Source: an uncultured virus (IMG/VR IMGVR_UViG_3300037504_000366) (taxonomy: Duplodnaviria; Heunggongvirae; Uroviricota; Caudoviricetes). From it: a stretch of 64,000 bases of DNA. Both the position numbers and the translations under genes were made by a program. The notes beneath the pieces were generated by a model, which saw only the letters and a list, made by a program, of their open reading frames with translations, did no database searches and was not told the origin of the DNA. Positions 820 through 63,437 of this stretch are shown here, one piece after another (position 1 is the stretch's first letter; each line of letters starts with the position of its first letter). Location of the stretch: the IMG/VR virus record IMGVR_UViG_3300037504_000366; one strand, written 5' to 3'.

Positions 820-1227
820 ATGGACTATGTATCCGTTAAGGACACTGATAAACTTTTAGCAAGGTTCAAGGCCCCCATAAAGGATGACCTGTATGCCCAC
901 GCATACATTTGGGGCGACAAGATCAGTATGCTGGACGCTGTGGCCGAGACTGACTCCAGGGCCTTTGCCCTCTGCCTAGTTCTGCCGCAGAAGGTAGATC
1001 CCGACACAGGCGAGCGAGCCCCAGGCCAGAACAAATACGCCGAGCTACATTTCATTCAGGGCAACTATGGAGTTGGCAGAGTTACTCACGAGCTGATGCA
1101 CTTGGTTTTGTTCCTCAGAGAGGACAATCTAATTGAGGATGACGAGGAAATGTGCACCATTGCAGGCTCGATGGCTATATCATTTTGGGAGCAATGTTTC
1201 GAATGGATGAGCGAAAACGAGTCGTAG
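820..1227 (+). CDS. Hypothetical protein with HExxH motif (possible zincin-like)
   Basis: VTHELMH followed by acidic DEE; tightly packed ORF. Confidence 0.55.
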   Translation: MDYVSVKDTDKLLARFKAPIKDDLYAHAYIWGDKISMLDAVAETDSRAFALCLVLPQKVDPDTGERAPGQNKYAELHFIQGNYGVGRVTHELMHLVLFLREDNLIEDDEEMCTIAGSMAISFWEQCFEWMSENES

Positions 1228-1970
1228 TAGCGGTTCCGTTCTTTGACAGCAAAGAGAACAGGCGTCATTATAGAGCTACGTACCCTACCCTCAATATACT
1301 CAAGGATGTGTTGGACCCCAGGCACATCATCTTTCCGGTAGACAATGGCTCTACTGACGATAGAACCTGGCAGTGGCTGAATGACACCCGGCCATTTGAA
1401 CACTTTACCAGAATAGATGAGCCGCAGTCCATTGCTTATGGTGTCAACGCTGCCTGGCATCCATTCCACGATGACCTGATGGCTGGCAGTATTCTGGCCC
1501 TCAAATACGACAGCGACATTTGGATCAATCCCAGTATACACGATGCCATTGAGATGCTGGCCAAGCTCGATGAGATAGATCCCAGCGTTGGGCTGGCTGG
1601 GATTGCATACAATACCCACGACTACAGCGACAAGAATCCTGCCGATGTGAGAAAAAAGTATTTCTACTACAGGTTCATCTATGGTGCTGTGTCACTAAGA
1701 ACATCGGCTGGGTTCAGAGCTATTGGGTATTGCAAGAATCCTCATGGCAGGTGGGGATATCAAGATTTGTGGGACAGTTTCAGAACCAGCAAGGCCGGTC
1801 TCAAGAAAGCGGTGCTTAGAGGGTATGCGTTCAGGCAGATCACCGGCACTGGCTCTCTGTTGGCCCATGAGAAAGACGAGATCAAGGATGCTGGCCATAA
1901 GGCCCTAATACAATTACAAAGAGAGGTTAACAAGGGGAAGCGCCCTATATTTCAGGAGGCATTCGAATGA
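1203..1970 (+). CDS. Glycosyltransferase, GT2/GT-A fold
   Basis: VVVAVPFF, VDNGSTD, DxD (YDSD), WGYQD motifs; ATG 1203 preferred. Confidence 0.85.
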   Translation: MDERKRVVVAVPFFDSKENRRHYRATYPTLNILKDVLDPRHIIFPVDNGSTDDRTWQWLNDTRPFEHFTRIDEPQSIAYGVNAAWHPFHDDLMAGSILALKYDSDIWINPSIHDAIEMLAKLDEIDPSVGLAGIAYNTHDYSDKNPADVRKKYFYYRFIYGAVSLRTSAGFRAIGYCKNPHGRWGYQDLWDSFRTSKAGLKKAVLRGYAFRQITGTGSLLAHEKDEIKDAGHKALIQLQREVNKGKRPIFQEAFE

Positions 1971-2206
1971 GATTTGAGCTGGACAGGAACGAGATCGACA
2001 CGGTACAGGCTCACACGTGCCGTGCTGAATCGTTACCGAGTGGGCCGATGGTGTCGACTGGGTACATCAGCCTGCCATTAGTTAGAGCTACGAAAGATGG
2101 CGTGTGGGTCCTAACTGGCAATACCTACATGCCCACGGCTCAGGTAGCTATCGAGATAAGATTCTGCCCATACTGTGGAGAGGAGTTGAGCAATGAACAG
2201 ACGTGA
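1967..2206 (+). CDS. Small protein with C-terminal CPYCG motif
   Basis: IRFCPYCGEEL; ATGA overlap with the upstream gene. Confidence 0.65.
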   Translation: MRFELDRNEIDTVQAHTCRAESLPSGPMVSTGYISLPLVRATKDGVWVLTGNTYMPTAQVAIEIRFCPYCGEELSNEQT

Positions 2207-2405
2207 TTTTCTTAAAAGGGCTTCCTTGTTGCCCGCTGCTCCCCTCGCGGTAAGGGAGCTTCTGCGGCAGATGGAGGAGACCAGGCGCATTGCTCAGGGC
2301 GAAAGCTTTTCCTGGCTACAGCATGCTGGCCCTGGCTCTACATCAGAGGTTCCCTGGAATTACGGAGAGGTGATTGGTGATACTAGAGACATATCCAGAG
2401 ATTGA
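2193..2405 (+). CDS. Small protein with twin-arginine-like N-terminus
   Basis: MNRRDFLK; SD GAGGAG upstream. Confidence 0.55.
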   Translation: MNRRDFLKRASLLPAAPLAVRELLRQMEETRRIAQGESFSWLQHAGPGSTSEVPWNYGEVIGDTRDISRD

Positions 2406-2519
2406 TTTCTCGATCATAGACACGTTCTATAGCAACATATGGCACATGACACATACAGATAGGCGGCCTCGATGGGACTCTCTACGATGGATTAGAGACA
2501 CCTGGATGCTGGGACTGGA

Positions 2520-3203: not shown

Positions 3204-3846
3204 AGTATACGGATTTCAAAGGTCGGGCACTCACTTTTTGGCCCAATTGCTCAAGGATAACTTTTATCCCAATATCAATATATCTGGTTTGATTGCAGGA
3301 TATGGACACTACACCAATAGAAAAAAGGACAGAAGGGTCTTGCCGTACAAGGCCTTGTTCCGCAATCCCCATAATCCACCACCGACAGACACAGCCAGAG
3401 CGCTATACATATTTAGGGATGGCAGGGCCGTGGCCAGGTCCTTGTGGATGTCTGATGGTTATAGAGGGAAAAGGTGGAAGGATGGACAGTTCTCAAAGTG
3501 GCTCAGAACTCCACTTGACTGGCGCTTCCACAACATTAATGCAGCACCGCACAACACCCTTACGTTTGCTGAGCACTGGATGGAGATGCTTGAAATGTGG
3601 AAAGACCAAGCGTTTCTTGTCCGTTACGAGAACCTGGTTGCTGATACCAGGAAGTGGTTGGGGATTATAGCTGACCACTTTGGGCTTGATAAGCCAGATA
3701 AGTGGGTTCTGCCGCAGAAGCTAGTTGGAACTGCCCCCTCTGGTGGAGGACTCCACGGGTGGCGCGAGCTATTCTCTGAGGACGACATAGAGTATTTCCA
3801 CTCCATTGTACCTAGAGATTACTGGGGGCTATACAATGCCGGGTAG
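3196..3846 (+). CDS. Sulfotransferase
   Basis: 5'-PSB-like GFQRSGTHFL, 3'-PB-like FRDGRAVARS, LVRYENL. Confidence 0.85.
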   Translation: MVRVYGFQRSGTHFLAQLLKDNFYPNINISGLIAGYGHYTNRKKDRRVLPYKALFRNPHNPPPTDTARALYIFRDGRAVARSLWMSDGYRGKRWKDGQFSKWLRTPLDWRFHNINAAPHNTLTFAEHWMEMLEMWKDQAFLVRYENLVADTRKWLGIIADHFGLDKPDKWVLPQKLVGTAPSGGGLHGWRELFSEDDIEYFHSIVPRDYWGLYNAG

Positions 3847-4354: not shown

Positions 4355-4355
4355 A

Positions 4356-4967
4356 TTGTTTCTTATTACTGGGTGTGGCCGCTCTGGCACCAAATACATT
4401 AGCAGAGTTCTTAATCAATGTGGCCTCGATGTAGGCCACGAGGTCCCTGGGAAAGACGGGACCGTTAGTTCGATCTGGGCAGTGCGGGATGACCGGGAGA
4501 GGTATCCTGTATGGCACCACCAGGGGCCGAGGCCCAAGTTCGATGTTACGCTATTCCAGATACGTAATCCAGTACACAGTATACCGTCTCTTACCACCGG
4601 GTCTATTGTAAGCTGGCGATGGAATCAAAGGCATATCCCGCTGGACTTACCAGACCCGGACGATGAGGAGGCAAGGCTATTGACCGCAGCTCAATACTGG
4701 ACGCGGTGGAATATGCTCTGCTTGAAAAAGTATGGTCAGCCATATCAGATCGAGAATCTAGAGGCCGAGTGGCCAAGGATATGCGGCCTACTGGATATAC
4801 GTGTACCATATACAACAGCCGTTCGTGGAATATCTAGGCAGACCAACACTCGCAAGCACCCAGTGTATTCTGCGGCAGAAATAAGATCGGTGTGTTCCAA
4901 AGAGCTATGGAGAAATATGACAGAGATGGCCAGAGTAGCTGGCTATGAGGGAGTTTTAGATGCTTAG
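4356..4967 (+). CDS. Sulfotransferase-like protein (second copy)
   Basis: ITGCGRSGTKY, VGHE, QIRNP...S, YWTRWN, YQIENL. Confidence 0.75.
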   Translation: MFLITGCGRSGTKYISRVLNQCGLDVGHEVPGKDGTVSSIWAVRDDRERYPVWHHQGPRPKFDVTLFQIRNPVHSIPSLTTGSIVSWRWNQRHIPLDLPDPDDEEARLLTAAQYWTRWNMLCLKKYGQPYQIENLEAEWPRICGLLDIRVPYTTAVRGISRQTNTRKHPVYSAAEIRSVCSKELWRNMTEMARVAGYEGVLDA

Positions 4968-7230
4968 AAACGGATCGTTCGAGGGCGGATGGTATCACCC
5001 ACAGTCCATACCGGAGCTACAGATCCCAAACGAGTGGGTGTTTAGCTGGAAAGGCCCGAGTACACCAAACCCATTTGACAGTAATCCCTGGGCCGAGTTC
5101 CACAGACCCGAGGTGAGAGTGTTGCCCAAAGCCCAATTGCCGCCAGAGGAGCACGATCTGTTTATCTTAGATGGCGATCATTGCCTCAAGGTATTCGGGT
5201 CGTCTTGGTGGGGCACATTTGTGCAGCAGGTAGAGCTAGAATCTGGACAGTACGAACTGTCTCTAAATGTATTCGCCGATCTGGTTAAAGAGTACGTGGA
5301 TGGACAAAAAGTGTGGGCCGATGATCCAGAGGGCAGAGACGGCCTAGTGAGGGTGACGGTAAGGTCTGGCTTTGCTGATCAGTCTGACTGGATGAGCCTA
5401 GAGCCAGGAAGTTGGAATACTGTTTCTAGAACCATTGTGGTACCAGACAAAACGACCGTGTGGATTGAGATAGAGTTTATGTGCCCATTCCCGCTCAAGA
5501 GTAACGGCATCTTTGCCGACTCGTGGTCTCTCACTCGCACCTCCGACACTCCAGACGATGAGTGCCCCAGAGCAAGAGAGCCATACAATCGCACGTATGT
5601 ACTTCTGCCGCAGGAACTCAAAGAATCCGATGCGCGCAGAGCATTCGAGCTAGCTTACCCCTGGCGGTTAACGGTTGGCTCAAGCGCAGACGATGCGGGC
5701 ATTTCGACAGTCGGCCTTATGAACAGAGACGTTATCGCCCTGAGGCCAGACGACTGGGCGGGAGCTGGCGAGCTGGAGGAATTCTTTGCAAAGCATTACC
5801 CAGGCGTCGCTATGCATCGTGTGGGCTGGGACAACTCTGTAAGACTATCTGGTCGGCTGGTTGCATCTATCCTGAAGACCAGGGGGTTGTCTCTTGCTTA
5901 TCCTGCCGCACTTGTTCCACACTACGTAACTGGCGAGTTTGGCGAGCCCAGGCATACGTATATCCACAAGGGGCTAGATCTCAGGGCATCGTACGATCCA
6001 GTGAAAGCTATGCTGACCGGCGTCGTGATCAGAGAGGAGATGGACGAGTCTGCTAGCCCATACGGCATTCATGTCATTGTGGAGTCAGACTTTAATGGTG
6101 AAAAGATCCAGTGTCGCTATGCACACCTGGATACCATAGATCCGTCTGTTGTATTGGGCCAGGTGATCGAGAGAGGGCAAGTCTTGGGAGTGTCCGGAAA
6201 CACAGGAAACTCCACAGCGGCGCACTTACATGTAGACGTTAGGTACGTTGGCAAGGGCCTGGATTTATTCATTGACCCAGATCTGCTAATTGATTACCCT
6301 TCTGCCGCAGAACCTCCGCCGCCCCAGATACCGTCTGTATCAGCGAAAAAGCTACTTGGCCTGCACATCCAGACTACGGTACCAGAGTGGCTAGACTACG
6401 TTGCCGATGTTCAGCCCAGGGTAGTTAAGCTAGTGGGGAATATCGAGTTATCCAGGGCTATCAAGGACAGGAGCCCCAACACTCTCGTTGTTTACAGGCA
6501 TCATGTATCCCATCAAGAGCCATACTACAATACAGACAATCCACTCAGAACGGCGAATCAGTTTCTGGATACACACCGCGATGCTCTAGCAAGGAATCAG
6601 GCCTGGATCGACGCGGACGAGTCCCTAAACGAGGAGGTTCCTACACACAACAATCACAAGCTATCTCAGGCTGTTGCTTTCGATGTAGCATTTGCCCAAG
6701 CCCTTTCCGATTCTGGTATTGACGTTGCTCCTGTGTTGCTATGCGGGGCGGTTGGAAATCCCGATCACGGCACCGAGACAGAGCTACTCATTCCGGCAGC
6801 CAGGGCTGCCGTCCAGCACAACGGATTCCTTGGCTATCACGCATACTTTTGGGCAAACACAAACGAGTCTGGGCTCGACTCCTGGTGGAGACATCACGCA
6901 GGGCGAGCACTGGAGTCCTGGGACCCCGTGTTCCGCAGAGCTGGCCTATATCCCAGATACATCTTTGGCGAGTTTGGCGCCGTTGGCTCCAATGATGGGT
7001 ATGCGCTATTCGAGGGTCAGGGCTGGAAGCATCCCGGCTGCATGAACGAGAATGCAGAGCGCTACCTGCAACACCTGAAATCCTGGGCGGACCGTGTGAA
7101 CGCCTGGAATGCTGATCATAACGACCGGGCGTTGGGCGGCACGATCTTTACAACAGGCATTGGAATCGGATGGGAATACTTTCAATTCCATACCTATATG
7201 ATGGACCGTGTGAGGAAAGCGTGGCTGTAA
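4960..7230 (+). CDS. Multidomain lysin: CBM-like + M23 peptidase + glycoside-hydrolase-like domain
   Basis: N-terminal LRNGSFEGG beta-sandwich; M23 motifs HKGLD, YAHL, GNTGNST, HLH; Pro linker; C-terminal NE...GYHAY...GEFG pattern. Confidence 0.75.
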   Translation: MLRNGSFEGGWYHPQSIPELQIPNEWVFSWKGPSTPNPFDSNPWAEFHRPEVRVLPKAQLPPEEHDLFILDGDHCLKVFGSSWWGTFVQQVELESGQYELSLNVFADLVKEYVDGQKVWADDPEGRDGLVRVTVRSGFADQSDWMSLEPGSWNTVSRTIVVPDKTTVWIEIEFMCPFPLKSNGIFADSWSLTRTSDTPDDECPRAREPYNRTYVLLPQELKESDARRAFELAYPWRLTVGSSADDAGISTVGLMNRDVIALRPDDWAGAGELEEFFAKHYPGVAMHRVGWDNSVRLSGRLVASILKTRGLSLAYPAALVPHYVTGEFGEPRHTYIHKGLDLRASYDPVKAMLTGVVIREEMDESASPYGIHVIVESDFNGEKIQCRYAHLDTIDPSVVLGQVIERGQVLGVSGNTGNSTAAHLHVDVRYVGKGLDLFIDPDLLIDYPSAAEPPPPQIPSVSAKKLLGLHIQTTVPEWLDYVADVQPRVVKLVGNIELSRAIKDRSPNTLVVYRHHVSHQEPYYNTDNPLRTANQFLDTHRDALARNQAWIDADESLNEEVPTHNNHKLSQAVAFDVAFAQALSDSGIDVAPVLLCGAVGNPDHGTETELLIPAARAAVQHNGFLGYHAYFWANTNESGLDSWWRHHAGRALESWDPVFRRAGLYPRYIFGEFGAVGSNDGYALFEGQGWKHPGCMNENAERYLQHLKSWADRVNAWNADHNDRALGGTIFTTGIGIGWEYFQFHTYMMDRVRKAWL

Positions 7231-14958: not shown

Positions 14959-14974
14959 TTAATAGGAGATTACG

Positions 14975-15751
14975 ATGGACAGACTCAAGTACCGACTGAT
15001 CAAAGCTAGGGCCGCAGCCGATGATGATGATTCGGATGCCGACCCAAAGCCGCCTCAGCCGCCAAAGAGCCAGTCACCAACTGCCAACATCGACCCGTCT
15101 ATGGTATGGGACGACGAAGGCAAAATGTGGAGAGACAAGTTTAACGGGCAGAAAGGGGCAGTTCAGGACCTCTCGACAAAATTGGCCGAGGCGCGTAGAG
15201 AAATCGATAGCCTGAAACAAAAGATGACCGATTCATTGTCGAGCCGTGACCAAGACGAGACTCAGCTCAGAGAAGAGCTGGAGTCCCTGAGAGAGAATGC
15301 TGGAGTGATCCCGGATCTGCACGAGAAGATTAAAGAATTGACCGCCAAGGTCAAGGCTGGAGAGCGCTATAAAGCACTAGCTAGAAGGCCAGAGTTGCTT
15401 TCGATGGTTGTTGAGGAAGAAGAGGAGACAGAGGACGGAGAGACGGTTACCAAAAGGACCAACCCTATCCTTGATCTCGTAGCTTCATCCAACCTGGAGG
15501 GCGAGGACTTAGATGCCCTTCTGGACAAGTTGTCTGTCGCAGTACCTACAACTTCTGCGGCAGAAGATAGCGCAAAGCCCCCAGCGCCCCCGGCGCCCCC
15601 GGCACCTGATGGGGACGATCTGGAGAGCCTGTACAACGCGGCTATCGCAGCAGATGATGCTCTAAGAGAGCACGGCTGGAGCAAGAGCTTAAACGACAAA
15701 TCTATGCAGGCCTGGGCAGCGTACAGAGAGGCTTTGGCGGAACAAAGTTAA
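14975..15751 (+). CDS. Capsid scaffolding protein
   Basis: Acidic coiled coil with Pro-rich segments, directly upstream of the presumed capsid gene. Confidence 0.7.
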   Translation: MDRLKYRLIKARAAADDDDSDADPKPPQPPKSQSPTANIDPSMVWDDEGKMWRDKFNGQKGAVQDLSTKLAEARREIDSLKQKMTDSLSSRDQDETQLREELESLRENAGVIPDLHEKIKELTAKVKAGERYKALARRPELLSMVVEEEEETEDGETVTKRTNPILDLVASSNLEGEDLDALLDKLSVAVPTTSAAEDSAKPPAPPAPPAPDGDDLESLYNAAIAADDALREHGWSKSLNDKSMQAWAAYREALAEQS

Positions 15752-15762
15752 GGAGAACGAAG

Positions 15763-17241: not shown

Positions 17242-17898
17242 ATGACGACTTTTACCGAGATCAACGATAAATGGTCGCGGTTCACCGGCCAGGAGGGGGC
17301 GGGAGCTTTGTTCCCGATCCCCCTTCGGGTCGATGCTTGGAACTGGTGCCAGCGGGTGTTTGCTAGATCGCACACACCTATGCAGCTATCAGTCAGGCCG
17401 GCGTTTGATACCGGTGGTAGATCGATACTTCTGCCGCAGAACTTTATACGGCCTATGGGCTTGTATGACAGTGACGACGATAGATGGTGGTGGAGGTACA
17501 ACCCGACTCAGGGCGACATCATGTTCAATGATGGCGACACGTCTGAGTTTTGGCTCTGGGGCGATAGAATCTACCTGATGGACAAAAGGTCGTACTCAGA
17601 CGACGACCTTACCTTGTACTATTATGGATACTACCCTGATATCACCATCCAGGAGGATGGTGATGGCTATACCTTCCCCGAGGAAGACGTACTTACGCCT
17701 GACTGGGCAGAGGTAGCTTTGTTACATCTCGGCACTGCGTTTTGTTGGCAACCTGCCGCAATCGAGGCAGCCGAGCTAAACGAGTACAAACTTGCAGTTG
17801 AGGCAGGCACGCCTGTCCACAACCCAAGATCGTTACAGGCCAGGGAGCATCTTTATTGGTACGACCAGATCGTTAACAGAGTTGAGACTACAGTATGA
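17242..17898 (+). CDS. Head-tail adaptor/connector (probable)
   Basis: Follows the capsid gene; LPQNF...LYYYGY.P pattern of adaptor proteins. Confidence 0.55.
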   Translation: MTTFTEINDKWSRFTGQEGAGALFPIPLRVDAWNWCQRVFARSHTPMQLSVRPAFDTGGRSILLPQNFIRPMGLYDSDDDRWWWRYNPTQGDIMFNDGDTSEFWLWGDRIYLMDKRSYSDDDLTLYYYGYYPDITIQEDGDGYTFPEEDVLTPDWAEVALLHLGTAFCWQPAAIEAAELNEYKLAVEAGTPVHNPRSLQAREHLYWYDQIVNRVETTV

Positions 17899-19619: not shown

Positions 19620-19621
19620 GT

Positions 19622-19891: not shown

Positions 19892-19905
19892 AAGGAGTAA
19901 TAGCT

Positions 19906-33526: not shown

Positions 33527-34174
33527 GTGCGAAAACCAAAGACGCCCAATATTCCCAACAGGACCGCCACAACCAGGGATGAAAAGACCGAGTTAATGAT
33601 TGGCACCGTGGTTGGCGTGTTGCCGGGTAGTAATTACATTAAAGTGAGACTGACTGGATATGAGGAAAAGTCCATCAATAATGTGATATCTGTTGAGGGC
33701 TTGGGCCTATCAGCAGGCGATAGTATTGTGATTGCCAGGATTCCGAACAGTCGCTCCCTAGTTGCTCTTTCAAAGGTGGCACCTACCACCGGGACCGGTG
33801 ACACGTCCCTAGCCGGGATGGTATATCCACCTACAGATTTTGCTGTAGTTGGAATGAACGATGGGATCTTGTGCACCTGGACGGCCTGGTCCGGGGTGTC
33901 ATACTGCTATCAGGTACAACACAATGCTTCTGCGGCAGAAACCGGCGCGGACTCGTTTTATACCTATGGCTCCCATTTTGTATACAACGACGCGCCCAAT
34001 ACATACAGATACTTTAGAGCCAGGAGTGTTCACTACGATGTCAGGTCTGGTAAGGTGTATTACAGCGGCTGGACATCGTGGGCTGGCGTGAAGGTTAGGA
34101 GAGATATTGTGATGCTAAACAAGATGATAGACAAATACATGAAGAACCACATTGTTGACGGGACCGGGAGCTGA
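33527..34174 (+). CDS. Minor tail protein (OB-fold-like + FN3-like)
   Basis: GTVVGV...LSAGDSIVI; CTW...YQVQ...RYFRARSV...SGWTSW. Confidence 0.55.
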   Translation: MRKPKTPNIPNRTATTRDEKTELMIGTVVGVLPGSNYIKVRLTGYEEKSINNVISVEGLGLSAGDSIVIARIPNSRSLVALSKVAPTTGTGDTSLAGMVYPPTDFAVVGMNDGILCTWTAWSGVSYCYQVQHNASAAETGADSFYTYGSHFVYNDAPNTYRYFRARSVHYDVRSGKVYYSGWTSWAGVKVRRDIVMLNKMIDKYMKNHIVDGTGS

Positions 34175-40003: not shown

Positions 40004-40281
40004 TGTTCTTTTAACGGTTCTGTTTGGAGTTGTTCAGCCCCGTCTGGTGCAGCTAATGAGACGGTATCTAGGTGAGAATCTTAACCGTAATGACCTTGTG
40101 GTTCAGGCTGTAGTCCTGGTTTCGTCTGCTGCGTTGGCCGTGTTGGCTTTGGCATTGTCTGGCGATCTTGCCTGGAATGGCGATATCGTTGCATTCGCAG
40201 GTGTGATATACACCCTGTCGAATGTTGTCTACAAGAAATGGCAAGACTACTGGGATTCCCTTCTGCCGCAGAAGGTGCGCT
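39994..40281 (+). CDS. Holin-like membrane protein (ORF track 39993..40283)
   Basis: Three hydrophobic segments, basic C-terminus, strong SD GGAGGTG, last gene of the + arm. Confidence 0.6.
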
Positions 40282-40302
40282 AGTCACGCACTATCCCACA
40301 GC

Positions 40303-42695: not shown

Positions 42696-43607
42696 TTACC
42701 AGTACCTCCTTATCAACATATCGAGATTGAGCTCGATCAGAAACGATTCTGCGGCAGATCTGTCTGGTTTGTGTGGCAACGATGTGGGCAGAGACATCAA
42801 GTAATCCTTGAGCCCCTCTGCTGTTGCCACAACCTCATCGAACTCTAAATGGCCATTGAGAATACGCAGAAACTCGGACCTCTGCCTTAATGGTAAAGTA
42901 AGATGCCCCGTAGACAGGAGTTCCTCGGCCTCCCACTTGAGCCTGTATAGATGAGCCGCGTGCTTGGTATCATAGCCGTGCTTGCGCTCAAGCTCTGCTC
43001 TAGCGGGGTTGCGGTTCTCGCGCCAAACTCTGTAGTTACTCCACTCTCTGCGCCGGTTATCGTATGCGTTCTTTAACTGGCTGTTGGTCCACTTGGATGA
43101 ACCGTCGCTCCCATCCACGAGTCCATAGTCGTACGGATCTGGCTCTGTCGGCGGATCATCCAGCCATCTCTTGTGCCGCAAGATGCGGCTCAATTGCGAG
43201 TACGCATACCCGGCATATGTGTGGATGATCTTTTGAGACAAGAAAATATCTTTGGCCTCCAGAATCTTGCGCCATATATTTGACTCGTACAAGATCGCCT
43301 CGTCGGGCGCAAATAGGAGCTCTATGATATTAGGGTTAGCATCCAAGCATAGCTTGAAAAACTTGTTTATCCCGTACACCTGCACATCGTCTGAATCAAC
43401 GCCAAACTCTTGTTTCGACCATATTCTGGCACCCCGTGGGCCTGGGTGAAACTGATCGAATCCTGTGAGGCCCAACATAGCCTTGACTGGCATTAGGCAG
43501 ACGCCACGAATATCAATGTCCGATTGTGCGCGGGTCGTACCATACATGTGGCTACCGGCCAGAGTGGCGAATATCAATCCCTGCTTTCTATTCCATATCT
43601 CTTTCAT
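42696..43607 (-). CDS. Pol-beta-superfamily nucleotidyltransferase
   Basis: AGSHMYGT...SDIDIRGV, NPNIIELL, YDTKHAAHLYRL; ATG 43607 overlaps the upstream stop. Confidence 0.85.
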   Translation of the reverse strand: MKEIWNRKQGLIFATLAGSHMYGTTRAQSDIDIRGVCLMPVKAMLGLTGFDQFHPGPRGARIWSKQEFGVDSDDVQVYGINKFFKLCLDANPNIIELLFAPDEAILYESNIWRKILEAKDIFLSQKIIHTYAGYAYSQLSRILRHKRWLDDPPTEPDPYDYGLVDGSDGSSKWTNSQLKNAYDNRRREWSNYRVWRENRNPARAELERKHGYDTKHAAHLYRLKWEAEELLSTGHLTLPLRQRSEFLRILNGHLEFDEVVATAEGLKDYLMSLPTSLPHKPDRSAAESFLIELNLDMLIRRYW

Positions 43608-45403: not shown

Positions 45404-46225
45404 TCAATCATACTCCAGTCCCTCAGTAAAGGGACCGTCCCCCAATTGAGATTCCCAACAAAGATTCCAGTATTCACAGTTTGGGACGCGGTGGTTGCGT
45501 CCAGCCTTTTTGGTACACTGCCACCCGCTGAACGGGTCTTTTAATTTCTGCGGCAGAAGCGGACTGTGCAGCTCCTCCTGTAACGGTGCCATATAGTCGA
45601 CCAGATGCTCGCCGGGACGACCGCCGTTTTTCATCTCTCTGTCTATATATCCCTCGTAGTGCAGGCCTTTATCCGACTCCCACACCCGAAACTCCGCATC
45701 GTGGTGCCAGGATCTATAAAAGATATACGTAGGAACCTCAAGCCCCCACGCCTCCTTCATCATTCTGCCGTAGGCAATTGCTTGTAGCATATGAGACGTG
45801 TATGGCAGAGCTCCACGACGAAAGTTGTACGTGTGGGTGGACTTGTGCTCCACGATAGCCCCGCTGGGGAACTCGCCGCAGTACCCTATCAAGATATCAA
45901 TTTCTGCCGCCCAGTTACCGAACCATATTGGCACACCGTGGAATACAACCGGGAATCTGCTCTTTAGAGCTAGGTACGTGTCGTGCTCATTTAGGACGCC
46001 AGTCCTCATCCTGAGGAGCGCTTCTTTATCAAAGCGCTCCATCTCGCTGGGCTTGAATGCCCGTGGATCATCAGTTCCCTCAAGCACATTGAGGATCTGG
46101 CGGCGTTTGCAGTATGTCATGCCAGAAGCCGATAGTCTCGGTCTGACAAAGTGGTGTCTGTCGTACCAGTCGCTGAGTTCCTGCTCTTCTCTAAGCCACG
46201 ATTCGACCGCATTGGAAAATATCAT
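45404..46225 (-). CDS. Cas4/AddB-like PD-(D/E)xK exonuclease
   Basis: LSAS...CKRR, G...H, EIDIL, IVEHKS, QAIAY, C-terminal C...CEYWNLC. Confidence 0.8.
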   Translation of the reverse strand: MIFSNAVESWLREEQELSDWYDRHHFVRPRLSASGMTYCKRRQILNVLEGTDDPRAFKPSEMERFDKEALLRMRTGVLNEHDTYLALKSRFPVVFHGVPIWFGNWAAEIDILIGYCGEFPSGAIVEHKSTHTYNFRRGALPYTSHMLQAIAYGRMMKEAWGLEVPTYIFYRSWHHDAEFRVWESDKGLHYEGYIDREMKNGGRPGEHLVDYMAPLQEELHSPLLPQKLKDPFSGWQCTKKAGRNHRVPNCEYWNLCWESQLGDGPFTEGLEYD

Positions 46226-46653: not shown

Positions 46654-46805
46654 TCTCGTTTAGTGCTGCCTGGTAGCGCCAGGTATCTGCTATCGTTTGT
46701 GCTTCTGCGGCAGAAGCCATATCGCCCTCCTCGACTGCCTCCTCGGCAGCCGTTTGGGCAGCATCGCTTGCCGCTCTTGCGAAATCACTGTAGTTGTTGT
46801 TCTCC

Positions 46806-49555: not shown

Positions 49556-49940
49556 GCTCTCTCCTCTCTATTATGCTGCTCATTTTGCCTGGCTGTGGCT
49601 GTGTCAGGAACTTTCTCACTGCATCATCGTGCCTTTCGTTTAGCCACTCGAAATAGTGAGAAGGTTCACGGCTACACAGCCATACTGGTCTACCGCCATC
49701 CGTGGTGCTGTCGCATATCGGGCACTTGTGCCACGACTTCTGCGGCAGAAGGTCTTCCGCTCTCGACCCTCCCATCTTAATATGCAATGCCACTGCCTGA
49801 ACGTGATCACAGTTGGCTTTACCACAGCTACAGGTCTTGTCCTTGAATACCTGATAGCGCTTGTTCCCGTGGCTATTGGTAACGGTCACCAGGTAGTGCC
49901 CCCTTACTGTGTTCACTCTCATAGATGCGCCTCTAGACAC
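49530..49940 (-). CDS. SWIM-type zinc-finger protein
   Basis: CSCGKANCDH plus CPIC...C...H. Confidence 0.65.
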   Translation of the reverse strand: MSRGASMRVNTVRGHYLVTVTNSHGNKRYQVFKDKTCSCGKANCDHVQAVALHIKMGGSRAEDLLPQKSWHKCPICDSTTDGGRPVWLCSREPSHYFEWLNERHDDAVRKFLTQPQPGKMSSIIERREHALQSSVQ

Positions 49941-50317: not shown

Positions 50318-50807
50318 TCCTTCTGATGGCCGTGATACATATATTCCACAACATCATAGCCAGATTGGCTACGTCTCTGCATTCTCTGGCAGCCGCTGCC
50401 AAGTAGCTCATCCTGCTAGCATCGCTGTGTGACCACACCAGTCTATAGAGCTTTTCCCCGATCTCGCCAAACTCCTCGCCCATCTTCGCGTACATGTAGG
50501 CGGGATCACTTGTCTCCCAACCGCTCTTGTGGGAGTTCTGCCGCAGAACCTCTTTCATCTGCTCCGCAAAGTCATCTACGAGCGCCTCTTCCTCACTTAC
50601 CTCGCTATCGTATGAGTGCAACAGTTGCTTGTAAAGCCTCGGTAAGTCCTTTCTCAGAACATATACCATCTCACTGCCCTCATAGTTCCTGACCGTGATC
50701 CTGGCGCCGACCAACGACACTCTCTCGACTGTCTCTACCTTGAGAGAGACATCATCGTCGAATGCATCTGCATACTCTCTTTTTGTCATTATTACCTCTC
50801 CACCCAA
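50298..50807 (-). CDS. Protein with MazG-like NTP pyrophosphatase C-terminal region
   Basis: NSHKSGW...EEFGE...ECRDVANLAMM. Confidence 0.65.
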   Translation of the reverse strand: MGGEVIMTKREYADAFDDDVSLKVETVERVSLVGARITVRNYEGSEMVYVLRKDLPRLYKQLLHSYDSEVSEEEALVDDFAEQMKEVLRQNSHKSGWETSDPAYMYAKMGEEFGEIGEKLYRLVWSHSDASRMSYLAAAARECRDVANLAMMLWNICITAIRRIENEND

Positions 50808-52200: not shown

Positions 52201-52752
52201 CTACCTCTCACCTTTAACAGGAACGTCGCCAAGGTTACGGCTTTCTGCCGCAGATCTACGCTTGCTCTCCACCTTTTTGGATCTAACCACATACGCTACG
52301 GAGTTGAGGACATGCACAATTAGCCCTCTCCCCCGACTATCTTTCTTGTAACAGCGATCCACGGTGCTTCTCAGGTGCCCTATGCTCATATAGCGTCTTG
52401 CATCATCCCAACGGCGCTTCTCCGTCTTGTTTGCAAAACCATCCACGCCAGACACTTGCATTAGGTACCATCCCACACCATCGTCGTCATCTGGGGGCAC
52501 AGTCTCGTATGTGCGCCGGTATGACGCTGGTGTTCCGAACTCCCGCTTCCATATCCTGGAATTTGTCCATATGATACGTGCATTACATCCAGGACATATG
52601 TCCTGGTCCTGCGCGATCATTTCGATTTCGCAGGACGGGCATTGCGCCTTGTACCACTCCTCCTTCGGTATGTCTTTGATTTCAAAAATCTCCACTTGCT
52701 CCCCCTTACGTGCCTTGTCCCAACGATTCCAGCGGCAACATCGAGGGTCCAT
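52201..52752 (-). CDS. Zinc-binding hypothetical protein upstream of the helicase
   Basis: CPSC...CPGC; start probably internal. Confidence 0.55.
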   Translation of the reverse strand: MDPRCCRWNRWDKARKGEQVEIFEIKDIPKEEWYKAQCPSCEIEMIAQDQDICPGCNARIIWTNSRIWKREFGTPASYRRTYETVPPDDDDGVGWYLMQVSGVDGFANKTEKRRWDDARRYMSIGHLRSTVDRCYKKDSRGRGLIVHVLNSVAYVVRSKKVESKRRSAAESRNLGDVPVKGER

Positions 52753-52964: not shown

Positions 52965-53744
52965 TCATAGCACAATCCTTGTGTTGTTCTTGGTGTCTTG
53001 GACGCCGATAGACAGATTCCATTCAATGTTACCGTTCAGAGAACTGAGTACAGTTTGCACATCGCCCTCGTCTGGGACAAGCAGAATAATCGCCTTGCCC
53101 TTTTTAGTGGACGCGGTAGTGCCCTTACCCACTTTGCTTTTCACCTGCGTGCGGTACTTTCTGCGCATCGCGTCCCGTGTTGGAACCTTGTTTGAGTCCT
53201 CAATGATATCTCGGATTGCCTGTCGGTTATCTAGCTCAACCGCTGCACGCAGTGCCGGGATAGCCTCTCTTAGCTTGGGCCACGCAGACTCTGTAATACC
53301 ATCGTCGATGTCAAGCCCATTGTCATCGCAATAGGGGACTATTATTGTCCCGATCGCATCCATATCGGACAGTGTGCTGCCATCCAACCCTGATGCGCGC
53401 AGGAAGTCTCTGAGGTTTTCGAATCCATCGGGGTGCTCGTCATCAGGCGGGTAGTAGAGATACAGATCCTCTCGCGCTATCTTGGCTACAAGCATTGCGC
53501 TGAGGGAGCGTAGCCCTCCCCGCAGTTCCTCAATGTACTTTATGCTCTCCATACCAAGCACTGACTGCATCTGAATGTCGGATAATTCGTACGGACGCTT
53601 CTGCCGCAGAACTGCTGCTTGTGCGCCCGTATATACAAACTCCAACAATTGCTGCCTATCCACTAATTTGTTGTCGGCCATAGTCCCTCTCCACTTGGTT
53701 GCCATATACTGTTCGCTCTCACCCATTCCCACTGCCGTAGGCAA
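52965..53744 (-). CDS. Hypothetical protein (start probably at MADNK, 53680)
   Basis: Long ORF on the coding strand; SD GGAGAGG before the internal ATG. Confidence 0.6.
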   Translation of the reverse strand: MPTAVGMGESEQYMATKWRGTMADNKLVDRQQLLEFVYTGAQAAVLRQKRPYELSDIQMQSVLGMESIKYIEELRGGLRSLSAMLVAKIAREDLYLYYPPDDEHPDGFENLRDFLRASGLDGSTLSDMDAIGTIIVPYCDDNGLDIDDGITESAWPKLREAIPALRAAVELDNRQAIRDIIEDSNKVPTRDAMRRKYRTQVKSKVGKGTTASTKKGKAIILLVPDEGDVQTVLSSLNGNIEWNLSIGVQDTKNNTRIVL

Positions 53745-55603: not shown

Positions 55604-56742
55604 TCTACCTCCTCGTTAATGTAGTGATCGATCAGTTCCCGGTACTCACTAGCCAGCCATTCGGCTAGCTTTTCGGTTCTCAGCTCTTGAGAGAACGGTC
55701 GCCAGGGCTGCCACGCCAGACTTACAGCGTGATCCACAAACTCTCTTACCTCTGGGTCGTCCTCAAGGTCACGCCAGTCTGATCTATGGCCTTCACCGAG
55801 GGCCTCAAAGTCATCCAGAACCTGAGCCTCAAAGTGTTCCTTTACCTCTTTGAGTCTTTCTAGTCTTTGAGTCAGATTTCGTAGGGATTCGTTCCCCTCT
55901 ACGACAAGCTCTAGGACTTTCCTTGCGGCCTCTCGGTGATCGGCCTGGCATTCGTCTCTCAGCTTTCCAATAATGCACTCGAAGGGGATTGCCTCGAGTA
56001 CACTCAGTGCTAATGGCTTATGGTAGGCCTGGGTTGGCAATGCCTCAACCTCAAGCCCGTGGGCGTCGTAGTCAACCAGTGTGACCGTGATGGGATCGCC
56101 GCACGCCTCGCATGTCGCACAGCCGGTGCCCTGCATAGTTGTTCTTCTGCCGCAGAAGCACCCGTGTACAAACAGGCCGTTATTGTCCGCCCAAGTGATG
56201 TACCCGCGGTTGCTGGTCTTGACATCATACCAGCTCCCTTCCCAGTTGTCCTCGCCTACCTGTAGCGGCCTAATCCCCACACGCACCTCTTGTGCCCAGG
56301 GAGTATACCGCTTGCACTGCTCTGCGAATGTAGGGGAGATAACAGCCTCGCCATCCATATCCCAGTCAGTAATTGTCAGTATCACAAGCGGATCTCTAAT
56401 GCTGAATGGGTCGTTGTAAGGTGCCCAGCCAAAGTGCTCCCTCAACATCAACTCAGTAGCGGCCTTAGACTGTTTGCCCTTTCCGGAAATAAGCACCGGT
56501 GCTCCAATCGACTTGGCAATACGCTCGAAATCCAGGAAAAGACTGTCTTTCTCAACAGCTATCACCACGTTAAAGGTCCGGTACAGCTTTTCCCAGATGC
56601 GCTTCATCATCCGGGATGCATCCTTGGCCCACAGATCGTGGTATGTAACGCCCTCTTCGTCCACCAGGCTAGCGAACGTCTGGCTTAGGCGAGCTGCCCA
56701 TCCTGTCCCGTCAAATCCCTTTTGCTCGTGCTTGTCATCCAT
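55600..56742 (-). CDS. TOPRIM-domain protein (Topo VI-A/JetD-like)
   Basis: IAVEKDS, SGKGKQS, TDWDMDG, LEVEAL motifs; Cys-rich insertion. Confidence 0.65.
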   Translation of the reverse strand: MDDKHEQKGFDGTGWAARLSQTFASLVDEEGVTYHDLWAKDASRMMKRIWEKLYRTFNVVIAVEKDSLFLDFERIAKSIGAPVLISGKGKQSKAATELMLREHFGWAPYNDPFSIRDPLVILTITDWDMDGEAVISPTFAEQCKRYTPWAQEVRVGIRPLQVGEDNWEGSWYDVKTSNRGYITWADNNGLFVHGCFCGRRTTMQGTGCATCEACGDPITVTLVDYDAHGLEVEALPTQAYHKPLALSVLEAIPFECIIGKLRDECQADHREAARKVLELVVEGNESLRNLTQRLERLKEVKEHFEAQVLDDFEALGEGHRSDWRDLEDDPEVREFVDHAVSLAWQPWRPFSQELRTEKLAEWLASEYRELIDHYINEEVE

Positions 56743-57729: not shown

Positions 57730-58575
57730 TCATCTCCCCCACTCCTCTGGTAACTGCTTGTAATCCATCGATGGCGGCACGGGTGTTTCCTTGTTGATCT
57801 GCTTCACAAACACCGGTATATCGTATAGCTTGCATTCTATCACTAATGGGTGGATCGCATTGATCATCCCGCTGGGCGTCATCGTGGGTTTGCCTTGTCC
57901 ACTCTGACCGCCAATCATAATAGCCAGAGAGCTATCGTGCCTGTGCAGAAAGTCCATATACTCCTCCGGCGTCGTGTCCATTGCGTCTTGGAACAGGTTC
58001 TTTAAGCTGATGTGCTCAAGTATCGGCTCGATCGAGAGCCATAAGTTGATGTCGGGAACGTACATACCCAGCGTCAAGAGCTGTCTTAGCCTGTAATGTT
58101 GGTTCTGCCGCAGAACACTGGTGCCATAGATAAAGCTGCGTGGGGCAGGCTCCTGCTCCAGCACAAATCTTTTCATCCTGCTAGGCCACTTGGTGAGCAG
58201 GAGCCACTTGTGTCCGGAGGCCTCCATTCCACTGATGTAGGGTTTGAGCCACCTGTTAGGGTCTATATCAGGCGCGAACCCATCGCTCAGATCGTTTACA
58301 AAGATGATCCTTGGCATAAACTTGAGCCAGGGCTTGTCGGTCACCTCTTTGGATTTGGGTTCCCGCCATCTGATTGCCTTCTCCAGCCGTTGTGGATAAT
58401 ACTGCGGGTCTGTAAAGTTGTCCGGCCATCCCTTTCGACCACTATACCTATCCACCAATACCTTGGCATAACAGATGTTTTTATTTGGATCATCGCTATA
58501 CAGCTCACAGCCAGTGCATCCCACTACTGGGTTGACCGTGCTATGACAGTATTCTATGTTTGTGTACCTGGCCAT
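57730..58575 (-). CDS. DUF5131 (phage Gp37/Gp68) family protein
   Basis: TNIEY...NPVVGCTGC...CYA, IFVNDLSD, LLTKWP, LSIEPIL, IGGQSG, PVFVKQ. Confidence 0.88.
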   Translation of the reverse strand: MARYTNIEYCHSTVNPVVGCTGCELYSDDPNKNICYAKVLVDRYSGRKGWPDNFTDPQYYPQRLEKAIRWREPKSKEVTDKPWLKFMPRIIFVNDLSDGFAPDIDPNRWLKPYISGMEASGHKWLLLTKWPSRMKRFVLEQEPAPRSFIYGTSVLRQNQHYRLRQLLTLGMYVPDINLWLSIEPILEHISLKNLFQDAMDTTPEEYMDFLHRHDSSLAIMIGGQSGQGKPTMTPSGMINAIHPLVIECKLYDIPVFVKQINKETPVPPSMDYKQLPEEWGR

Positions 58576-58662: not shown

Positions 58663-58669
58663 GTCTCGA

Positions 58670-59041: not shown

Positions 59042-59054
59042 TTTTTAAATCCTC

Positions 59055-61058: not shown

Positions 61059-61104
61059 TACCCTCTCCTTTCAGTTGTTTAATATCCACTCGCCAGCGGC
61101 GTTT

Positions 61105-61446
61105 TTAACCACTTATCTTTTCTGCCAGGAGGGCTACCTCATCACTGTTTGGAAAGTTCACATGTACACCTGTGGTTAACACAGTGATGTGTGCCTCAAC
61201 TCCCTGCGTCTCCAGTGCGGAAAGCAACTCTTCTGCCGCAGAAGCCTTCTCTTCCATCCGAGGGTCAGTAGCAGGATAGTGGAGTCTGTCGGGAGACACG
61301 TTTCTTGTGCTCCCGTCTTGCATCTCGATCTCAACATCTCCGCTCCCGTCCACGTTGGTAATCTCGCACCACCGTGGAACGGGCAGGCGATTGTTGATGT
61401 AGATGACCCTGTCCCCAACGCTTGCTCTAGCATCTTTCTCGTTCAA
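61105..61446 (-). CDS. Hypothetical protein (SH3/Tudor-like N-terminus)
   Basis: VGDRVIY...VEIEMQDGSTRNV. Confidence 0.55.
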   Translation of the reverse strand: MNEKDARASVGDRVIYINNRLPVPRWCEITNVDGSGDVEIEMQDGSTRNVSPDRLHYPATDPRMEEKASAAEELLSALETQGVEAHITVLTTGVHVNFPNSDEVALLAEKISG

Positions 61447-61524
61447 GAGCTGCCTCCAATCGGTGAACGATGAGTCCGAACACTATCATATCGCGACCCT
61501 CTAGATCTCTCACCACGATGTATT

Positions 61525-62178
61525 TCATTTCAACAGCCCCTCATAGAGTCTGTCCAGAACATCCCACTCTCGGTCGCCCAGGCCGAGATCGAATGCGTCC
61601 ATCTGGTTTTTGAAATCATCGCGGTCGCATACGCCACGATCCACGATATCCGCCAAGATAGTTAGCACGTCGCTAAGATGGCTACTGTCTCCGTACACCC
61701 CTCTGCCGTGGTACTTGATACACCTTATTAGGGCGCTGATAGGGTACTCGGATCCACAGTACCAAGTGGTGTAGGATTTGGTAGCGGCCCACCAGTCCGC
61801 CGTCCACTCAATATCTATCACGTCCAGGCTGTGCTCTGTTACCCTTATATGAGCGCCCACCTGAACGTGCGCAAAGTCAAATTGCTCGATGAGGGGTGCC
61901 AGGCCCCCAAAGTAAAAGCTACAGAGCTGCACTGGTACCAGCTCTTCCGAGAATCTCAGTGTGGTAGCGTTGGGTGTTGTGGATTCTTTTATATCATCTT
62001 GGATATTTAGCAACACTTCAGCAAACGATCCATCTGTCGGGTAAACATCCAGATCGTTTAGCGGTGCGTTGTTTAGGCTATTGCCTGCCAAGTAGAACCC
62101 CAGCAGGCCGATACTAACAAAGCATCGCCGATATGGGAGCAGCCTGTCTATAACCCTCTTTTTAATCTCGCCTTTCAT
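61525..62178 (-). CDS. Nucleotidyltransferase-like protein
   Basis: YLAGNSL...NDLDVY, IEQFDFAHVQ, RCIKY..RG. Confidence 0.6.
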   Translation of the reverse strand: MKGEIKKRVIDRLLPYRRCFVSIGLLGFYLAGNSLNNAPLNDLDVYPTDGSFAEVLLNIQDDIKESTTPNATTLRFSEELVPVQLCSFYFGGLAPLIEQFDFAHVQVGAHIRVTEHSLDVIDIEWTADWWAATKSYTTWYCGSEYPISALIRCIKYHGRGVYGDSSHLSDVLTILADIVDRGVCDRDDFKNQMDAFDLGLGDREWDVLDRLYEGLLK

Positions 62179-62564
62179 AGTGAAACCCTCTCCATAATAC
62201 CCCTGCCGAGTACGTCGATCCACTCACAGACGTTGGCCTCTACGTAGATCGTCTCTACTCCGTCTTTTACCAAGCTGTTTCTGGGAATGGTAATCTGTAC
62301 GCCCTTGGGCAAGACATAGCCAACCACATGATCACTGGACAAGGTCAGCATCTGGAATGTGGCATCCTCCCTAGACATTCCAGTGAGGCCCTCCCACATC
62401 GTCCAGGCATCGCGAATGGACACTGCGATTATTACCGTCTCGTTTTTGTCCCAGTATGCACTCAGGCCCCCCATCGCTATCTCTGAAATAGCAATCATCG
62501 CGTTGGACGAGTCGATTTTGCATCGTCTCCAGTCACGTAGAATATCGTATATGCTCTTGGTCAC
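62175..62564 (-). CDS. Hypothetical protein
   Basis: Coupled overlaps on both sides. Confidence 0.55.
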   Translation of the reverse strand: MTKSIYDILRDWRRCKIDSSNAMIAISEIAMGGLSAYWDKNETVIIAVSIRDAWTMWEGLTGMSREDATFQMLTLSSDHVVGYVLPKGVQITIPRNSLVKDGVETIYVEANVCEWIDVLGRGIMERVSL

Positions 62565-62971
62565 AATAACCTCCCTTGCCTGGCCACCGGTTGTGGATCG
62601 GTCGCCAGCTTAATTAGCTCGCTAGTACCCGCCTCTTGATGCTGTATGATTTCTGCCGCAGAAATTATAAACACTCCCTTGCCTGGCACCTCAACCCTTA
62701 TCTGCCGCAGGCACTCTTTTGTCCAGCCCTCAAGGCACCCCTGGATCAGATCGGCCTCTGTGTTAAAACATAGCTCGATCTGATCCCCGGACTCGCTCAC
62801 GTACGCAATCCCGTTTGGACGATCCTTAGACAGGAACGATTGCGCCGCGCCTACAAGCCGAACTCTGCACGGGTAGAACCCGGTGTGATCGATGAACATC
62901 CTTAACATTTTTCCGCTCCTACGTGGTATACGTAGGAGTATATCACAAGTGCAGCTTTTTGTACAGCTCAC
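62561..62971 (-). CDS. Hypothetical protein
   Basis: ORF on the coding strand; start uncertain. Confidence 0.5.
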   Translation of the reverse strand: MSCTKSCTCDILLRIPRRSGKMLRMFIDHTGFYPCRVRLVGAAQSFLSKDRPNGIAYVSESGDQIELCFNTEADLIQGCLEGWTKECLRQIRVEVPGKGVFIISAAEIIQHQEAGTSELIKLATDPQPVARQGRLL

Positions 62972-63437
62972 TCCAGCTTTTGGATGTCCTCCCTTCCGTA
63001 ATGCGCTGTAGTCGATATAGCACCCGGTCTGCTGGATTGTCGCATATAAGGTAGAGCCTCTCTATGGCGAGCAAGAGATGATACGACCTACTTCGAGGGT
63101 TAATGTATCCATTTATGATCGATTTTATGATCGTGATCACGTTGTCGGTGTTGGGATTGTATGCTCCATAAACAGCGCTGGCACCATCGAGGGTCTCATC
63201 CATTCCCTTGATGCTAAACAACATCATTAGGGTATCACCTACCTCGTCTTGCAGTGTGTCTTTTTCTCTTGCCCTCACATCGTTCTGCCTCAGAAGGCGC
63301 AACAGCGCATCCAACAGCTCAGATGCCTCTGTAATGGCATACAGAATACAGTCTGCCTCTCCAGGCCAGGCGAACTCATCCTTGATCCAAGCTCGCCAGG
63401 TTTGCACCGCTGCATACAGCTCTTTAGGTGTGTTCAT
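62943..63437 (-). CDS. MazG-like NTP pyrophosphohydrolase
   Basis: YAITEASELLD...QDEVGDTLMML (ExxE...ExxD). Confidence 0.65.
   Translation of the reverse strand: MNTPKELYAAVQTWRAWIKDEFAWPGEADCILYAITEASELLDALLRLLRQNDVRAREKDTLQDEVGDTLMMLFSIKGMDETLDGASAVYGAYNPNTDNVITIIKSIINGYINPRSRSYHLLLAIERLYLICDNPADRVLYRLQRITEGRTSKSWSELYKKLHL

Follow-up and report, generated by a model that had tools for sequence, protein, structure and literature searches.

One exact 13-bp palindrome, TTCTGCSGCAGAA, is written repeatedly into a phage genome under selection that acts on the DNA itself, and the same word recurs in other phages, some of them without detected gene kinship to the first save for a marginal portal match. 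The genome is that of an uncultured virus of the Caudoviricetes (IMG/VR record IMGVR_UViG_3300037504_000366), of which a stretch of 64,000 nucleotides, called the window below, was analysed as a whole. We tentatively favour the reading that the copies are dispersed sites of a dimeric DNA-binding protein, comparable to the operators of KorB, and that the binder is probably supplied in trans.

The window holds 19 exact copies of TTCTGCSGCAGAA, and none of 100 dinucleotide-preserving shuffles (0/100) contained any. At no more than one mismatch there are 27 copies, against a shuffle mean of 0.15 and a largest value of 1. Relative to an order-2 model the motif is 90- to 150-fold in excess, a level that no other 10-mer in the window approaches. 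A preliminary description of this DNA, made from the sequence alone, had reported the 19 exact copies together with eight one-mismatch copies, five of them ending in GAT, and our recount returned every one of them. Spacing between window sites averages 2396 bp with a coefficient of variation of 0.74, somewhat evener than random, and density across the genomes that carry the word is about one per 2.4-4.7 kb. The copies are listed below with the open reading frame (ORF) that holds them and, in brackets, the peptide read at the site; ORFs are simple longest-ORF calls, and no strand is assigned to exact copies.

980..992: exact, centre C; weak ORF 820-1227 (VLPQK)
2260..2272, + strand: one mismatch, GAT at right end
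3707..3719: exact; ORF 3157-3846 (VLPQK)
4868..4880: exact; ORF 4356-4967 (YSAAE)
5603..5615, + strand: one mismatch (..CAGGA)
6300..6312: exact; M23-peptidase protein gene 4960-7230 (PSAAE)
15553..15565: exact; ORF 14975-15751 (TSAAE)
17429..17441: exact; ORF 17242-17898 (LLPQN)
22377..22389, + strand: one mismatch, GAT at right end; tape-measure gene
25284..25296: exact; gene of the 2693-amino-acid tape measure (PSAAE); a 17-bp palindrome with its flanks
28226..28238, + strand: one mismatch, GAT at right end; tape-measure gene
29775..29787: exact; ORF 29164-32295 (ASAAE)
33928..33940: exact; ORF 33527-34174 (ASAAE); the aligned position in carrier G003 reads TTCTGCTGCAGAA
38326..38338, + strand: one mismatch (TTCC...)
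40261..40273: exact; end of the last + strand ORF, 39993-40283
42747..42759, + strand: one mismatch, GAT at right end; within a - strand gene
45546..45558: exact; ORF 45404-46225 (LLPQK)
46703..46715: exact; ORF 46637-46864 (ASAAE); 17-bp palindrome
49738..49750: exact; ORF 49530-49940 (LLPQK)
50536..50548: exact; ORF 50298-50807 (VLRQN)
52243..52255, + strand: one mismatch, GAT at right end; - strand gene upstream of the DnaB-like gene
53599..53611: exact; ORF 52965-53744 (VLRQK)
56145..56157: exact; ORF 55600-56742 (FCGRR)
58103..58115: exact; DUF5131 gene 57730-58575 (VLRQN)
61231..61243: exact; ORF 61105-61446 (ASAAE)
62651..62663: exact; ORF 62561-62971 (ISAAE); 17-bp palindrome
63283..63295, + strand: one mismatch (..GCCTCAG..)

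The earlier statement that every copy lies inside an ORF holds for 18 of the 19 exact sites, which fall in well-supported ORFs, but site 980 is covered only by the weak ORF, which overlaps the next gene. Such placement expresses no preference, because the window is 96-97% coding.

Selection on the word was nevertheless evident within coding sequence. When synonymous codons were shuffled within genes (1000 shuffles, 20,129 codons), the exact word appeared 1.19 times on average and at most 4 times against the 19 observed, and copies with up to one mismatch averaged 2.7 with a maximum of 8 against 27. The exact sites are read in all three frames, as had been claimed, encoding SAAE nine times, [V/L]L[P/R]Q[K/N] nine times (site 980 included) and FCGR once. 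Conversely, SAAE is spelled with the exact word in 9 of its 12 occurrences in the window and [VLIF]L[PR]Q[KN] in 9 of 10. These peptides are themselves in excess, 12 SAAE against 0.68 in residue shuffles and ten [VLIF]L[PR]Q[KN] against 0.14, enrichments of 18-70 times. The codon shuffle is a conservative measure, because the proteins have adapted to the word as well: selection for the DNA word extends to the choice of amino acids. Codon shuffles, peptide spelling and peptide enrichment all support the original contention that selection acts on DNA and not on protein.

Two IMG/VR scans, which cover sites with particular flanks, revealed other carriers. The first gave at least 120 rows; the second, which was complete, gave 82 loci, among which the only records with several copies were G001 (with G004), G002 and G005. 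G003 came from the first scan.

G001 (with G004, a fragment from that phage): 69.1 kb, 81% complete; 24 exact copies
G002: 18 kb; 4 exact copies and 2 variants
G003: 26 kb; 2 exact copies and 3 variants
G005: 37.5 kb, 98% complete; 8 exact copies

The reversed word, taken as control, has 0 copies in each of G001, G002, G003 and G005. Together with the window, these genomes hold 57 exact, 15 one-mismatch and 6 two-mismatch copies. Compatible peptides are again spelled with the exact word, SAAE and [VLIF]L[PR]Q[KN] respectively in 8/11 and 5/6 cases in G001, 4/4 and 1/1 in G005, and 2/2 and 2/2 in G002.

The carriers do not form one family by gene content. G001 and G003 are distantly related to the window, sharing 23-37% identity with it in their versions of terminase, portal, tail tube, tape measure, RecA and DnaB. 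G005 is of temperate type: it carries an integrase, a cI-like helix-turn-helix (HTH) protein, ParA and a primase, and its head genes are Mu-like. The portal of G002 gave a marginal BLASTP match to the window (25% over 194 amino acids, E about 1e-5), and among the G002 and G005 comparisons an 81-amino-acid ORF gave another (E about 2e-4); BLASTP, phmmer, Pfam and PHROG provided no further link of G002 or G005 to the window or G001. G002 and G005 have only tail genes in common with each other, and no DNA beyond the motif is common to the carriers. The motif is thus not private to this phage, since the same 13-mer is present in phages without detected gene kinship save the marginal portal match.

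G001 also has a second repeated word (L139-L142), GAATCACCA(GGG), present ten times on one strand (10217, 17307, 28874, 31963, 32455, 33033, 45782, 46862, 51236 and 61479) and twice on the other. Several GAATCACCA copies lie just upstream of the palindrome, and the two at 61479/61524 form the arms of a long inverted repeat whose tip is the palindrome.

Alignment of exact sites showed that the symmetry reaches beyond the 13-mer. Over 49 exact sites from four genomes, position -2 is R in 41/49 and position -1 is C in 27/49, mirrored by G at +13 (26/49) and Y at +14 (36/49). The wider consensus R-C-TTCTGCSGCAGAA-G-Y is a 17-bp dyad, and the extended palindromes reported earlier at individual copies are therefore real. 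Every exact copy has C or G at its centre; A and T are not seen there. On the sense strand of the window the centre base is C nine times and G ten times. No isolated half-sites of the motif occur.

Departures from the consensus are polar. The outermost base is altered in 10 of the 15 one-mismatch copies, and in 10/10 of these at the same end once the structural genes are set on the top strand (window 2260, 22377, 28226, 42747 and 52243; G001 57221 and 67204; G002 1928 and 6940; G003 9935). The commonest change is A to T at position 13. Since three of the ten end variants lie in genes of the opposite arm, the polarity tracks the genome map and not transcription; it may reflect the direction of packaging, ejection or replication.

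Comparison of related phages showed how sites come and go. When the window is compared with G001 or G003, a site in one genome faces ordinary residues of the orthologue in the other, so that sites move, with one exception, window 33928, which corresponds to G003 1776. Insertion of the sites in frame was considered and ruled out, as they align to orthologue residues and are made by synonymous changes.

The relatives of G005 provided a natural variant of the word. None of 26 IMG/VR loci with terminases at 31-93% identity to that of G005 has a copy at up to one mismatch, such copies being confined to the G005 locus itself; five whole records of G005 relatives contain 0 copies of the window's word. 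One of these five, G783 (100% complete; terminase 82% and tail fibre 65-67% identical to those of G005), has nine matches to the skeleton TTCNGCNGCNGAA against 0.01-0.04 expected, eight of them being TTCCGCNGCGGAA with any centre base. SAAE occurs six times in G783 (L276, L277) against 0.34 in shuffles; none of these peptides is spelled with the window's word, and they are compatible with the variant TTCCGCNGCGGAA. More distant G005 relatives gave no match to the skeleton.

At one terminase position, within the peptide SSAAE, the relatives have perfect palindromes of different sequence: TTCTGCGGCAGAA in G005, TTCGGCGGCCGAA in L249 and L251, and TTCCGCCGCGGAA in G783. The pair formed by positions 4 and 10 is accordingly T:A in G005, G:C in L249 and L251, and C:G in G783. 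A second position common to G005 and G783 sits upstream of a conserved consensus promoter. Most others differ, about 3 of 8 site positions being common to the two phages (coordinates compared by hand). From the shifting positions and the symmetric replacement we conclude that substitution creates the sites, that they are gained and lost over time, and that their sequence can be retuned.

Some sites stand close to promoters. For three of them, in G001 and G005, the gap between the end of the motif and the -35 element that follows is 5, 8 and 25 bp, the promoters matching 11, 11 and 12 of 12 consensus positions, and in G005 the motif-adjacent promoters are two of only four such promoters. In the window, a promoter-like site (at least 10/12) begins 15 nt downstream of copy 3707..3719. 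A strong promoter-like site is found near 4 of the 57 sites, compared with about 0.5% of random positions. G001 has 11 of its 24 sites outside ORFs of at least 70 amino acids, though its non-coding share is 11.9%, and its early region concentrates eight sites within 4.3 kb, often 15-25 nt upstream of a Shine-Dalgarno sequence and ATG or right after a stop codon.

The placement in the G001 early region, including the site at the tip of the inverted repeat, would suit a hairpin in single-stranded DNA or RNA, serving as a promoter, priming, processing or stabilising signal in the manner of the hairpin promoters of phage N4 or of stem-loops that separate early genes, and the change of pair 4/10 in the variant preserves base pairing. 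We nonetheless consider this alternative, also proposed in the preliminary description, improbable. Folded as single-stranded DNA, the 17-mers give weak stems of -2.9 to -5.2 kcal/mol, and the commonest variant breaks a pair instead of wobbling, wobble changes accounting for 1 of 15 one-mismatch variants and compensatory changes for 1 of 6 two-mismatch variants. The centre has no sense-strand bias, and most window sites lie deep within ORFs. The window has zero matches to Rfam families, and no RNA polymerase gene, virion or phage, was found in it; this, with the weak stems and the location of 18/19 exact window sites in well-supported ORFs, also sets the sites apart from N4-type hairpin promoters.

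A cellular genome filled with the word would change its meaning, since equal abundance on a host chromosome would make it a host repeat of the HIP1 kind, as the preliminary description had pointed out. No such genome emerged from the GTDB, metagenome, Chloroflexota and Anaerolineae searches. A 4-Mb genome at phage density is estimated to hold about ten pairs of copies 20-50 bp apart; among GTDB representatives, two copies at that distance occur at 18 loci, all of them local tandem or paired repeats in unrelated taxa, with no scattered pairs. A metagenome collection searched with a gap of 100-130 bp gave eight loci, likewise local repeats. Across 401 Anaerolineae genomes the highest copy number of the S variants was 21, compared with 23 for the control; one of these genomes, G772, is unpublished, and no result depends on it alone. 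Relatives of the G005 terminase at 61-66% identity are named Anaerolineae bacterium, and five Anaerolineae genomes with G005-like terminase genes hold one copy in total. RecA look-alikes are all viral clusters and indicate no host, nor does the G005 portal. Among sequencing runs, the window was matched by one DNA data set, available as contigs and labelled tidal flat metagenome, which may be its own source; no RNA data set was listed.

Tandem arrays of the word in Acidobacteria, Bacteroidaceae and others were examined as possible partition loci and rejected, only TIR, Uma2 and unrelated genes being found nearby. In the absence of partition genes, we took them to be words that arose by chance and were amplified by tandem repetition. 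One family of arrays, in which a unit holding CTTCTGCSGCAGAAG recurs every 42-43 bp or so, occurs on L121, L130 (a Thermoanaerobaculia metagenome-assembled genome, MAG) and the soil contigs L231, L235 and L236; these arrays adjoin genes for TIR-domain and Uma2 proteins in acidobacterial DNA of 62-71% GC and were regarded as unrelated to the phage word, although the family appears on several contigs. A two-copy match on L237 (G337:C117), from a Chloroflexota MAG, proved to lie in a 13.3-kb perfect inverted duplication, an assembly artefact.

These searches bear on the proposal that the word is a genome signature of an unsampled host, iterated or uptake-like and driven into all DNA that replicates there. 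Its presence in unrelated phages, the occurrence of a variant in a close relative as for variants of the DNA uptake sequence (DUS), the all-or-none specificity and the use of all three frames would agree with such a drive, and the rarity of carriers means that the host may be rare too. Yet the GTDB and metagenome loci were local repeats only, the Chloroflexota and Anaerolineae genomes held no more than the numbers reported here, and even the five genomes with G005-like terminases totalled a single copy. We regard a host signature as doubtful.

The low counts in the searched cellular genomes also count against a link to DNA methylation or repair, which would be expected to leave the word in host chromosomes too. 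GCSGC and GCNGC are known restriction specificities (TauI, Fnu4HI), and multiplication of a word by biased repair or modification-dependent selection is the model proposed for HIP1. Applied here, it would make the GCSGC or GCNGC core the target of a methyltransferase or a restriction enzyme. The shift of the centre from S to N between the variants changes the core from one to the other, the C5-cytosine methyltransferase of G005 is absent from G783, which has a D12 N6-adenine methyltransferase in its place, and CTGCAG is found only twice in the window. However, the window and G001 share the G005 variant but show no C5 methyltransferase, the window having a Dam-family enzyme, and no methyltransferase type tracks the variant. 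Twelve fixed positions, moreover, far exceed known methyltransferase specificities. This explanation is very improbable.

The two enzymes form a module swapped between close relatives: the C5-cytosine gene at G005 19522-20490 (L185:3326-4294:-) is followed by a gene for a 136-amino-acid protein with an acidic tail, and the D12 gene at G783 14775-15752 (L276) occupies the same genomic position.

The binder was sought among the proteins of the carriers. No ParBc or KorB match in Pfam or PHROG was obtained from 90 window, 83 G001 and 64 G005 and G002 ORFs, the window and G001 being incomplete. ParA and integrase were not seen in the window or G001. G005 (AAA_31/ParA, E 3e-31) and G783 do encode ParA, together with a 123-amino-acid partner with a weak match to RHH_9 (E 0.005, below Pfam's cut-off).

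Each phage could be supposed to encode its own binder, either the centromere-binding protein of a partition system or an immunity repressor; the palindromes would be dispersed centromeres like those of N15 or operators like the mycobacteriophage stoperators, with the variants reflecting coevolution of protein and site. G005 and G783 lend themselves to this alternative, both being temperate-type with integrase, cI-like HTH, ParA and the ribbon-helix-helix (RHH)-like partner. The RHH-like protein is 50% identical between them and differs in the putative DNA-reading strand, and the cI-like protein is 40% identical (most shared proteins, 50-85%), a divergence that parallels the variant change; the site positions common to the two phages point the same way. 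Against it, the window, G001, G002 and G005 have an identical 13-mer, and the first three lack homologues of the G005 candidates: for the RHH-like, cI-like and a 310-amino-acid protein, phmmer at E up to 5 gave noise only in these three genomes, and a pairwise check gave 18% identity. Nor were ParA and integrase seen in the window or G001, and orthologues of the window and G001, at 23-37% identity, are too diverged for a 13-bp specificity to be expected to persist. A phage-encoded binder is accordingly unlikely in our judgement.

Among known systems, the closest in form are the KorB operators (OB) of the IncP-1 plasmid RK2, whose reader is a ParB-family clamp dependent on cytidine triphosphate (CTP). 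RK2 has 12 OB copies, near-identical and spread over a replicon of about 60 kb at about one per 5 kb, a dispersal like that seen here. The OB core is TTTAGCGGCTAAA, and the distance from OB to the promoter downstream is either 4-10 bp or between 45 bp and more than 1 kb (PMC11790492). Both words are perfect 13-bp palindromes of the build TT-NN-GC-S-GC-NN-AA, with 4 of 13 letters different (positions 3-4 and 10-11), and in both cases some sites are near promoters and others kilobases away or within genes. Unlike OB, the present word resides in phages and not on a plasmid, and is common to unrelated elements. As the window has no ParB-family gene, CTP-binding box or IncC/ParA gene that we could find, membership of the KorB/ParB family fails.

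Stoperators of Cluster A mycobacteriophages are likewise many 13-bp copies across a phage genome, their sequence tracking the specificity group of the repressor. They are asymmetric, oriented with transcription and mostly intergenic; the window site, in contrast, is a perfect palindrome, mostly within genes, its polarity follows the genome map, and no repressor-type gene was found in the window, although G005 does have a cI-like HTH protein. The dispersed centromeres of N15, matS, the Noc-binding sites (NBS) and the SlmA-binding sites (SBS) are isolated palindromes scattered through a replicon, often in genes, as here. Each set has a single dimeric protein as its reader, the gene for which lies on that replicon or in the host. 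Those sets are sparser than the present one, whose reader is putative, and among carriers and relatives only G005 and G783 have a ParA gene.

DUS vary between relatives, as the present word does. HIP1 (GCGATCGC), DUS and uptake signal sequences (USS) fill cellular chromosomes, however, and no cellular genome with this word was found in our searches; the word is also longer (13-17 bp) and phage-enriched. HIP1 and uptake sequences are exact short words that alter codon and amino-acid choice (PMC4390886, PMC2817400), and to that extent the present word, exact, in all frames and shaping codon and peptide use, is alike. Neither 13-mer was found in the searched literature, the 11-mer core matched only under titles unrelated to phage genomics, and on palindromes in excess in phages, searching by keyword produced nothing nearer than the HIP1 and uptake-sequence work.

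Exactness, dyad symmetry, the G:C-only centre, the symmetric change in the variant, the presence of both promoter-near and distant sites, and density all fit a homodimeric DNA-binding protein, which brings us back to the favoured reading. R-C-TTCTGCSGCAGAA-G-Y would be bound by a homodimer of high specificity and two-fold symmetry acting on double-stranded phage DNA, and phages exposed to it would have been selected for as many sites as their proteins tolerate, about one per 2.4-3.4 kb, the outcome being a dispersed site set of operator or centromere type. Binding may serve silencing or regulation, segregation, or protection. An identical word without a detected common DNA-binding gene, and close kin with none or a variant, lead us to infer a binder in trans, which would be supplied by the host cell or by an element resident in it.

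The preliminary description had likewise suggested a site for a dimeric protein, and of that suggestion the symmetry fits (17-bp dyad, C/G centre, symmetric 4/10 change), but no ParB, KorB, Noc or repressor-type gene stands behind it in the window. Several points weigh against the favoured reading. The window, which is cut at both ends, gave no Pfam or PHROG match to ParB, KorB or HTH at E up to 0.001 and no plausible CTP box (G[ED][RK]R / GERR). No strong promoter-like site is near 53 of the 57 sites. A host with few sites did not appear either: 41 of 401 Chloroflexota genomes have any copy, with at most three each, and the control word is as frequent. Identity of the 13-mer across unrelated phages is also expected from a host-wide sequence drive. 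Lastly, the phage-encoded ParA with its RHH-like partner, or the cI-like repressor, could read the sites in G005 and G783, as their gene content suggests, in place of a protein supplied by the host.

A broader and more speculative idea, which we think unlikely, is that of a viral identity word: a 13-17-bp palindrome, with variants, that saturates the genomes of unrelated phages of one host group and not cellular chromosomes. Such a word would mark phage DNA for silencing, partition, protection or self/non-self sorting; its reader would belong to the host or a resident element, and the word would be retuned by paired symmetric substitutions on a change of partner. We know of no cross-lineage, phage-only sequence code.

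The window itself is a two-armed phage genome. Genes on the + strand (about 200-40,300) encode a Dam-family methyltransferase, large terminase, portal, tail tube, the 2693-amino-acid tape measure and tail proteins, and those on the - strand (40,300-64,000) encode RecA, a Sak4-like ATPase, a DnaB-like helicase, DUF932 and DUF5131. As genes continue past both ends, the genome exceeds the window. Megablast found no close kin in the phage collection, and the terminase had no tblastn match there and no close relative in IMG/VR; a search for relatives of the tail protein at 29164-32295 was without match. No tRNA genes were found in the window. A divergent intergenic region at its left end (25-110), flanked by a - strand gene start (about 23) and the Dam-like gene (217), has long G/C runs (G8, C8, C6, C9, G5). 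The gene at 59055-61058 (- strand) encodes a 667-amino-acid protein that matches phrog_1735 (E 1e-220); hypothetical proteins from large Bacillus phages align with it along its whole length at 44-45% identity, and tblastn placed it in 560 phage records, among them phages of Salmonella, Klebsiella and Caulobacter. Beside two CTGCAG sites the 64 kb contain 405 GATC sites, a scarcity and a richness that may reflect avoidance of PstI-type sites alongside the window's own Dam-family methyltransferase.

The saturation of compatible peptides such as SAAE and LPQK is a sensitive signature of DNA-level words hidden in coding sequence. The system is approachable, offering an exact word, a natural variant in G783 that differs from the G005 word by one symmetric base pair, and three sites at shared positions. 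If one protein does read some 25 sites per genome at a cost in amino acids, the sites would reflect a strong and undescribed interaction on which several unrelated phages depend.

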